DNA of 64,000 nucleotides, from NCBI RefSeq assembly GCF_009931435.1, contig NZ_CP043414.1. One strand, 5' to 3'. The DNA comes from Escherichia coli. Its GTDB lineage: Bacteria; Pseudomonadota; Gammaproteobacteria; Enterobacterales; Enterobacteriaceae. A program made the position numbers and the translations under genes. This document shows positions 43,150 to 44,112 of this stretch, piece after piece; position 1 is the stretch's first letter, and the number at the start of each line of letters is the position of its first letter. The notes beneath the pieces are model-generated. The model was not told the origin of the DNA. It saw only the letters and a list, made by a program, of their open reading frames with translations, and searched no databases.

Positions 43150-43344
43150 CTGCTCTCCTTGTTAATTTAAGTGATATTTTGTTTGATAATGTGAATATAA
43201 GCGCTGGAAGATAACGATATGGTGAGCTGATTCACAAAAATTAACATTGTGTGTTATTTTATGTGAACTAAGCGTTAGTTGCGCCGCGCACGTTTCGCAG
43301 GCAAATAGCGTAGAATGTCAGCAGGACAAAGGAAGGAGCAAAAG

Positions 43345-44112
43345 TTGATACCCGTAGAGCGTCGCCAAATCATCCTTGAGATGGTAGCTGAAAAAGGCAT
43401 TGTCAGTATTGCTGAACTAACGGACAGAATGAATGTGTCACATATGACCATTCGTCGGGATTTACAAAAACTGGAGCAGCAGGGAGCCGTTGTGCTGGTG
43501 TCCGGAGGCGTCCAGTCTCCGGGACGCGTGGCGCATGAACCTTCTCATCAGGTAAAAACTGCGCTGGCAATGACGCAAAAAGCGGCTATTGGCAAGCTGG
43601 CGGCAAGTCTTGTTCAGCCGGGAAGTTGTATCTATCTGGATGCGGGAACGACCACGCTAGCGATAGCACAGCATCTGATTCACATGGAGTCACTGACTGT
43701 GGTCACAAACGATTTCGTTATTGCGGACTACTTGCTCGACAACAGTAATTGCACAATTATTCACACTGGCGGTGCAGTGTGTCGGGAAAACCGTTCCTGT
43801 GTCGGGGAAGCCGCTGCGACCATGCTGCGCAGCCTGATGATTGATCAGGCTTTTATTTCTGCATCGTCATGGAGTGTGCGGGGGATTTCTACGCCAGCGG
43901 AAGATAAAGTCACGGTGAAACGGGCGATTGCCAGTGCCAGCCGCCAGCGAGTTTTGGTCTGTGATGCGACGAAATATGGTCAGGTGGCGACATGGCTGGC
44001 GTTACCATTAAGCGAGTTTGATCAGATTATTACAGACGACGGTTTACCGGAGAGTGCCAGTCGCGCGCTGGCGAAGCAGGATCTCTCTTTGCTGGTAGCG
44101 AAAAATGAATAA
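43345..44112 (+). CDS. ygbI: DeoR-family transcriptional regulator (255 aa)
   Basis: ORF-track frame 43315..44112; start taken at TTG 43345 with AGGAG 6 nt upstream. The ATG at 43315 sits inside a TAGAAT -10-like hexamer and lacks a Shine-Dalgarno. Confidence 0.75.
   Translation: MIPVERRQIILEMVAEKGIVSIAELTDRMNVSHMTIRRDLQKLEQQGAVVLVSGGVQSPGRVAHEPSHQVKTALAMTQKAAIGKLAASLVQPGSCIYLDAGTTTLAIAQHLIHMESLTVVTNDFVIADYLLDNSNCTIIHTGGAVCRENRSCVGEAAATMLRSLMIDQAFISASSWSVRGISTPAEDKVTVKRAIASASRQRVLVCDATKYGQVATWLALPLSEFDQIITDDGLPESASRALAKQDLSLLVAKNE

Follow-up and report, generated by a model that had tools for sequence, protein, structure and literature searches.

The regulatory gene ygbI almost certainly begins not at ATG 43315 but at the TTG codon at position 43345 of the window (the whole 64,000-nt stretch of Escherichia coli DNA analysed here), on an mRNA begun at 43323 ± 1. 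An initial annotation of the window had proposed this start; it is borne out by the mRNA, which begins past the ATG, and by RefSeq, position 1 of the NCBIfam model, and all 12 of the orthologues compared. The transcription start site (TSS), the annotation, and the conserved position of the start each have the backing of published data or tool results. Because a 2009 paper already reported the TTG start of ygbI and the reference annotation uses it, the finding is an ordinary one. The features of the start region are the following.

43306..43308, plus strand: TAG stop in the ygbI frame, its upstream bound (12 open codons from the stop to the TTG)
43311..43316, plus strand: TAGAAT, the -10 hexamer of the ygbI promoter (5/6 against TATAAT)
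43315..43317, plus strand: upstream in-frame ATG, almost certainly unused and off the mapped mRNA (6-8 nt before the TSS; no Shine-Dalgarno sequence; found in Escherichia only)
43323..43323 (± 1), plus strand: ygbI TSS, an A (SMRT-Cappable-seq and 5' RACE)
43323..43344, plus strand: purine-rich 5' UTR of ygbI, 22 nt (published TSS; predicted to be only weakly structured)
43329..43338, plus strand: putative Shine-Dalgarno (SD) block AAGGAAGGAG, with its core AGGAG at 43334-43338 (anti-SD pairing, sequence)
43345..44112, plus strand: ygbI coding sequence from TTG, 255 aa plus stop, encoding the DeoR-family repressor of ygbJKLMN (RefSeq, NCBIfam NF040890, Pfam, and orthologue N-termini)

Bases 43300-43360 of the window read ggcaaaTAGcgTAGAATGtcagcaggacaaAGGAAGGAGcaaaagTTGatacccgtagag. 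The open reading frame listed for this region (43315..44112, plus strand) comprises 265 aa and opens with the ATG at 43315-43317, which is the first start codon of the ygbI frame because an in-frame TAG at 43306-43308 bounds that frame; the TTG at 43345-43347 is codon 11 of the same frame. The ATG had been described as embedded in a -10-like hexamer, and the two do overlap, in that the last two bases of TAGAAT (A and T) are the first two of the ATG, which makes "embedded" a slightly loose term.

The two candidate start codons differ in the pairing available upstream of them. The 20 nt preceding the ATG form a duplex of -2.6 kcal/mol with the anti-SD sequence at the 3' end of 16S rRNA, a value at the 47th percentile of all 20-mers in the window, and we therefore assign no SD to this codon. 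The 20 nt preceding the TTG form a duplex of -8.0 kcal/mol, among the strongest 1.5% of 20-mers in the window, with AGGAG (43334-43338) followed by the 6-nt spacer CAAAAG and then by the TTG, which is the arrangement of SD-led non-AUG initiation (anti-SD pairing 5-9 nt before an ATG, GTG, or TTG). The initial annotation was thus right that the ATG lacks an SD and that AGGAG is well placed for the TTG. Further, the UTR together with the first 35 nt of the coding sequence has a predicted minimum free energy of -5.4 kcal/mol. Taken alone, however, the -10-like hexamer and the AGGAG are statistically unremarkable: a hexamer matching TATAAT at five or more positions turns up every 435 nt or so on a strand, and 28 of the 63 AGGAG occurrences in the window have some start codon after a spacer of 4-10 nt. 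Since such motifs are common, the weight for the TTG start lies with the published TSS data and with conservation.

The published TSS data come from K-12, whose MG1655 copy of ygbI (b2735) is the same gene as the one in the window: the sequence is identical over the 150 nt that precede the start codon and over the first 20 nt of the gene, and MG1655 likewise has the TTG start, a product of 255 aa, and the divergent ltnD/otnK operon. The differences from MG1655 comprise four substitutions within the -200 to +20 span, which are located farther upstream in the intergenic region, and a different pphB-mutS neighbourhood.

In MG1655, 5' RACE (Mendoza-Vargas 2009, PMC2760140) placed the 5' end of the ygbI mRNA at +9 from the then-annotated ATG and 21 nt before the true start, and a single 5' end was reported for the gene, with no other. 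The gene-specific ygbI primer given in the supplement of that study corresponds, when reverse-complemented, to window positions 43490-43509. The authors named the sigma70 -10 element as CGTAGAAT / atagCGTAGAATgtca, noted that YgbI orthologues were 10 residues shorter, and judged the annotation to be 10 codons too long. Their reasoning, by which a TSS within the annotated reading frame, a sigma70 -10 element, and orthologues shorter by 10 residues together made the annotated ATG wrong, served for their start corrections of both ygbI and ybjX and is the same argument as that of the initial annotation. PMC2760140 does not give the SD or the identity of the TTG codon; both are added here, along with orthologue DNA and a second TSS dataset.

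That second dataset, SMRT-Cappable-seq (Yan 2018, PMC6131387, Supplementary Data 2), is from a method that enriches 5'-triphosphate ends, and it assigns b2735 one operon, whose TSS is reverse-strand position 2861256. This coordinate corresponds to window position 43323 (2861234 being window 43345); we give it as 43323 ± 1 because the entry for thrL, at 147, suggests that the table could be 0-based. The ygbI leader is 21-22 nt long on either dataset. Since both maps start the mRNA downstream of ATG 43315, the ATG is absent from the transcript, in the uninduced K-12 laboratory cultures from which both datasets derive. The text-form supplements of the 2016 Cappable-seq study contained neither ygbI nor a matching coordinate, and the TRAINSPOTTER supplements have no entry for ygbI.

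The proposal that TAGAAT acts as a -10 element is supported by these maps, which place the TSS 7 nt downstream, and by PMC2760140, which names the element as a sigma70 -10. Specifically, A43323 lies 7 nt past the last T of the hexamer (T43316) and 6 nt past the G of the ATG, so that the published primary 5' end is within the 6-8 nt expected after a sigma70 -10, and the hexamer agrees with TATAAT at five of six positions, including A2 and T6. In contrast, the best -35 match at spacers of 15-19 nt agrees with TTGACA at only two of six positions, the TGn of an extended -10 is absent (GCG precedes the hexamer), and a consensus promoter scan did not call the TAGAAT promoter. Because it has neither a -35 nor a TGn, the promoter is probably intrinsically weak.

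The same lack of a -35, combined with a 2009 RACE method that made no test for 5' triphosphates, would also suit a reading in which processing, not initiation, generates the 5' end at 43323 and the real promoter lies upstream, with translation still proceeding from the TTG. We regard this as highly improbable, since SMRT-Cappable-seq, with its enrichment for 5'-triphosphate ends, gives the same position, and since the -10 hexamer is located at the canonical 7-nt distance and is kept across genera in which the flanks diverge. In the preferred and almost certain reading, a weak, -10-only sigma70 promoter with its hexamer at 43311-43316 transcribes ygbI; transcription begins at A43323 (± 1) and produces a 22-nt purine-rich leader, in which the AAGGAAGGAG block would bind ribosomes for initiation at TTG 43345, yielding the 255-aa DeoR-family repressor YgbI. 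ATG 43315 is then an accident, arising from a -10 hexamer that happens to have a G after it (TAGAAT+G).

Conservation was examined at the DNA level. A locus search of genome contigs with a single protein returned only four loci (E. albertii, Entomohabitans, a contaminated MAG, and one distant match), and orthologue DNA was therefore gathered protein by protein. The resulting comparison of start regions comprised 12 sequences (loci L005-L016), 11 of them with fetched orthologue DNA, from Escherichia, Entomohabitans, Salmonella, Scandinavium, Serratia, Yersinia, Dickeya, Pectobacterium, Pantoea, and Citrobacter. All 12 of these Enterobacterales orthologues keep the start at the same position, four with TTG, seven with GTG, and one (Citrobacter portucalensis) with ATG, and a purine-rich SD-like block precedes it in every case. 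Only E. coli and E. albertii have an in-frame ATG 10 codons upstream of the conserved start; nine of the 12 have no in-frame upstream start codon, and Pectobacterium has only a GTG, 23 codons upstream. Salmonella reads TAAAAT and, after it, has a TAA in frame, five codons upstream of its TTG, whereas Entomohabitans reads TAGAATT and hence has no ATG. Moreover, an in-frame stop occurs within 14 codons of the start in eight of the 10 non-Escherichia orthologues.

The -10 region itself aligns as the block AAATnGCGTArAAT in five of six close genera, and 1-nt indels interrupt the leader between this block and the SD both in Salmonella and in the host of homologue P0041. An aligned -10 block followed by a leader that tolerates indels behaves as a promoter with an untranslated leader and not as codons. 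At the protein level, 24 of 27 retrieved homologues (from Salmonella, Entomohabitans, Scandinavium, Serratia, Yersinia, Brenneria, Pectobacterium, Dickeya, Pantoea, Erwinia, and Citrobacter) have the N-terminus MIPxER, and the other three have VIP, MLP, or a short extension before the same position.

The reference annotation agrees with this start. In the full-length RefSeq records of MG1655, MC4100, and WL297, ygbI spans 768 nt from the base matching window 43345 (in MG1655, NP_417215.2, complement 2860467..2861234, 255 aa), and RefSeq uses the same start base in three further E. coli strains, whose records are cut at the 3' end. The expectation that automated callers would over-extend the gene by 10 codons is therefore not met by current RefSeq/PGAP, but it does hold for many GenBank, UniRef, and JGI records: the exact 265-aa form is found on at least 1000 contigs in public collections (under GenBank, UniRef, and JGI names), where the 255-aa form is as widespread. 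The NCBIfam equivalog model for YgbI, NF040890, recognizes the 265-aa frame with 482.5 bits (E = 2.6e-145), above its cut-off of 400, and its positions 1-253 align with residues 11-263, so that model position 1 is the TTG codon. The paralogous DeoR models AgaR, SrlR, GlpR, and UlaR also begin within 1-5 residues of residue 11. Further, Pfam HTH_DeoR (PF08220) covers residues 16-69 of the 265-aa frame, with model position 1 at residue 16, and DeoRC (PF00455) covers residues 86-241, which gives the product the helix-turn-helix (HTH) and sensor domains of the family.

These data bear on the original E. coli annotation, in which translation truly starts at ATG 43315 alone and yields a YgbI of 265 aa. 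It has in its favour the commonest start codon, the longest reading frame, the many contigs on which the 265-aa form is deposited, and an ATG and frame that are intact in all E. coli examined and in E. albertii. Nevertheless, its probability is close to nil, given (i) an mRNA that starts downstream of the ATG in both TSS maps, (ii) the lack of an SD before the ATG, (iii) the absence of the extension from all non-Escherichia orthologues, with a stop closing the frame in Salmonella, and (iv) a curated family model that starts at residue 11 and a RefSeq annotation that uses the TTG.

Several length variants of YgbI were seen among the retrieved proteins. Homologue P0089, a 261-aa protein of Pectobacterium parmentieri, carries an 8-residue extension (MIKQGKDS) before the V that occupies the conserved start position, which may be a similar over-extension in a different genus. 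In a metagenomic E. coli variant (L020, positions 292-312), the SD core AGGAG is changed to AGGTG. The change gives rise to a GTG that is in frame and three codons ahead of the TTG; a gene caller used this new GTG, and the resulting 258-aa product is the cluster representative P0003. The extra length of variants P0006, P0025, and P0027, from some E. coli and Salmonella, consists of repeats between the HTH and the sensor domain: internal tandem duplications of AHEPSHQ in P0006 and of ATPQKAAIGKL in P0025, and an imperfect partial TPQKAA repeat in P0027.

Upstream of ygbI lies a divergent operon, annotated in E. coli as ltnD (L-threonate dehydrogenase) and otnK (3-oxo-tetronate kinase); a gene with NAD_binding_2/NAD_binding_11 domains is likewise divergent from the ygbI orthologue at eight of nine loci. 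Gao 2021 (PMC8464067) takes YgbI as a DeoR-type repressor of 255 aa; published K-12 data, from ChIP-exo and deletion transcriptomics, indicate that it represses ygbJKLMN and that it binds between ygbI and ygbJ, where one ChIP-exo site is reported. The intergenic region contains the following features.

42241..43149, minus strand: ltnD (ygbJ), divergent from ygbI, with the operon TSS at window 43188 (RefSeq; TSS 2861391 forward, SMRT-Cappable-seq)
43218..43238, no strand: CRP site TGGTGA-N6-TCACA, between the divergent promoters (Footprint-seq table of PMC12871828; placed in the window by eye)
43231..43267, no strand: imperfect palindrome with 16-nt arms at 43231-43246 and 43252-43267, a candidate YgbI operator

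The sequence of the CRP site is listed for ygbI/ygbJ in the Footprint-seq table of PMC12871828, and at 43218-43238 it is about 41 nt from the ygbJ TSS (43188), a class II geometry. The centre given in that table (2861360) and the one obtained by mapping the sequence (2861351) are 9 nt apart. A motif of about 16 nt resembling TGTTAWTTTWWGTGA occurs three times in the region, at 43160-43174, 43231-43246, and 43252-43267; two copies form the palindrome between the ygbI and ygbJ promoters, and the third is located in the ygbJ leader. The copies are partly conserved in Entomohabitans, and all three are candidate YgbI operators. The accessible text of PMC8464067 gives no YgbI operator motif.

This region also bears on whether a longer ygbI mRNA could exist. 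A second, upstream promoter would produce a transcript that includes ATG 43315, from which a minor, Escherichia-specific 265-aa isoform might be made beside the 255-aa YgbI. Shimada 2014 predicted the pair TTCACA-18-TATTTT (43231-43260) as a ygbI promoter, our consensus scan called it as well, and a transcript from it would carry the ATG. Moreover, the pair lies wholly inside the palindrome 43231-43267, which could be a YgbI operator and could thereby keep the pair silent in wild-type cultures, the sole condition of the TSS data. We nonetheless consider dual initiation very unlikely. The TCACA half of the mapped CRP site is part of this TTCACA, which is thereby explained without a ygbI promoter; neither TSS method yielded a second 5' end; the ATG would lack an SD even on the longer mRNA; and the extension is not conserved. 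As the main ygbI promoter, the pair was rejected, because its -35 is the CRP half-site, because the palindrome in which it lies is better taken as the candidate YgbI operator, and because no 5' end maps after it. Highly improbable, too, is a reading in which a YgbI- or CRP-controlled upstream promoter, active under induction, puts the Escherichia-only ATG on a longer mRNA; the minor 265-aa isoform that could result would have the basic N-terminal tail MSAGQRKEQK beside its HTH, which would alter operator binding.

Within E. coli, the ygbI locus is present in 4587 of 5426 complete genomes, and the ygbI-ltnD intergenic region (window 43150-43500) is missing from the remaining 839, which makes the locus accessory in the species. 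The 70-nt core of the start region is identical in 4342 of the 4587 genomes, and all three of the non-identical E. coli matches that were sequenced carry A43320C, a substitution 3 nt before the TSS that would be synonymous in the frame of the extension. As a test of whether the extension is coding, variation within E. coli is uninformative, given a near-invariant core and a synonymous substitution; the comparison with E. albertii (3/28 differences in the leader and 85/765 in the whole coding sequence) likewise does not separate coding from non-coding.

Downstream of ygbI (window 44163-46600), the window contains pphB, a 287-aa Sel1/TPR-repeat reading frame (44842..45705, minus strand), and mutS, whereas in K-12 and WL297 mutS directly follows pphB. 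The layout is rare: among 5426 complete E. coli genomes, only 11 cover 80% or more of this stretch, the highest identity being 97.6%. It resembles a variant form of the polymorphic region that adjoins mutS.

Repressor genes with a non-AUG start are known, lacI (GTG) being an example. Like the lacI-type repressors, YgbI is a low-abundance repressor whose gene pairs a good SD with a weak start codon. Eleven of the 12 orthologues start with TTG or GTG, each behind a purine-rich SD-like block, and this conservation of non-ATG starts, which is no more than suggestive, could reflect selection for low repressor dosage. An abundance of 2-6 YgbI copies per cell is reported in PMC7567609, which reprints values from Schmidt 2016, and the weak promoter and the TTG start may together help to hold YgbI at a few copies per cell. 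In summary, the start of ygbI touches no open biological question, and its sole import is one of annotation hygiene: cloning, tagging, and modelling of YgbI should take the TTG start.
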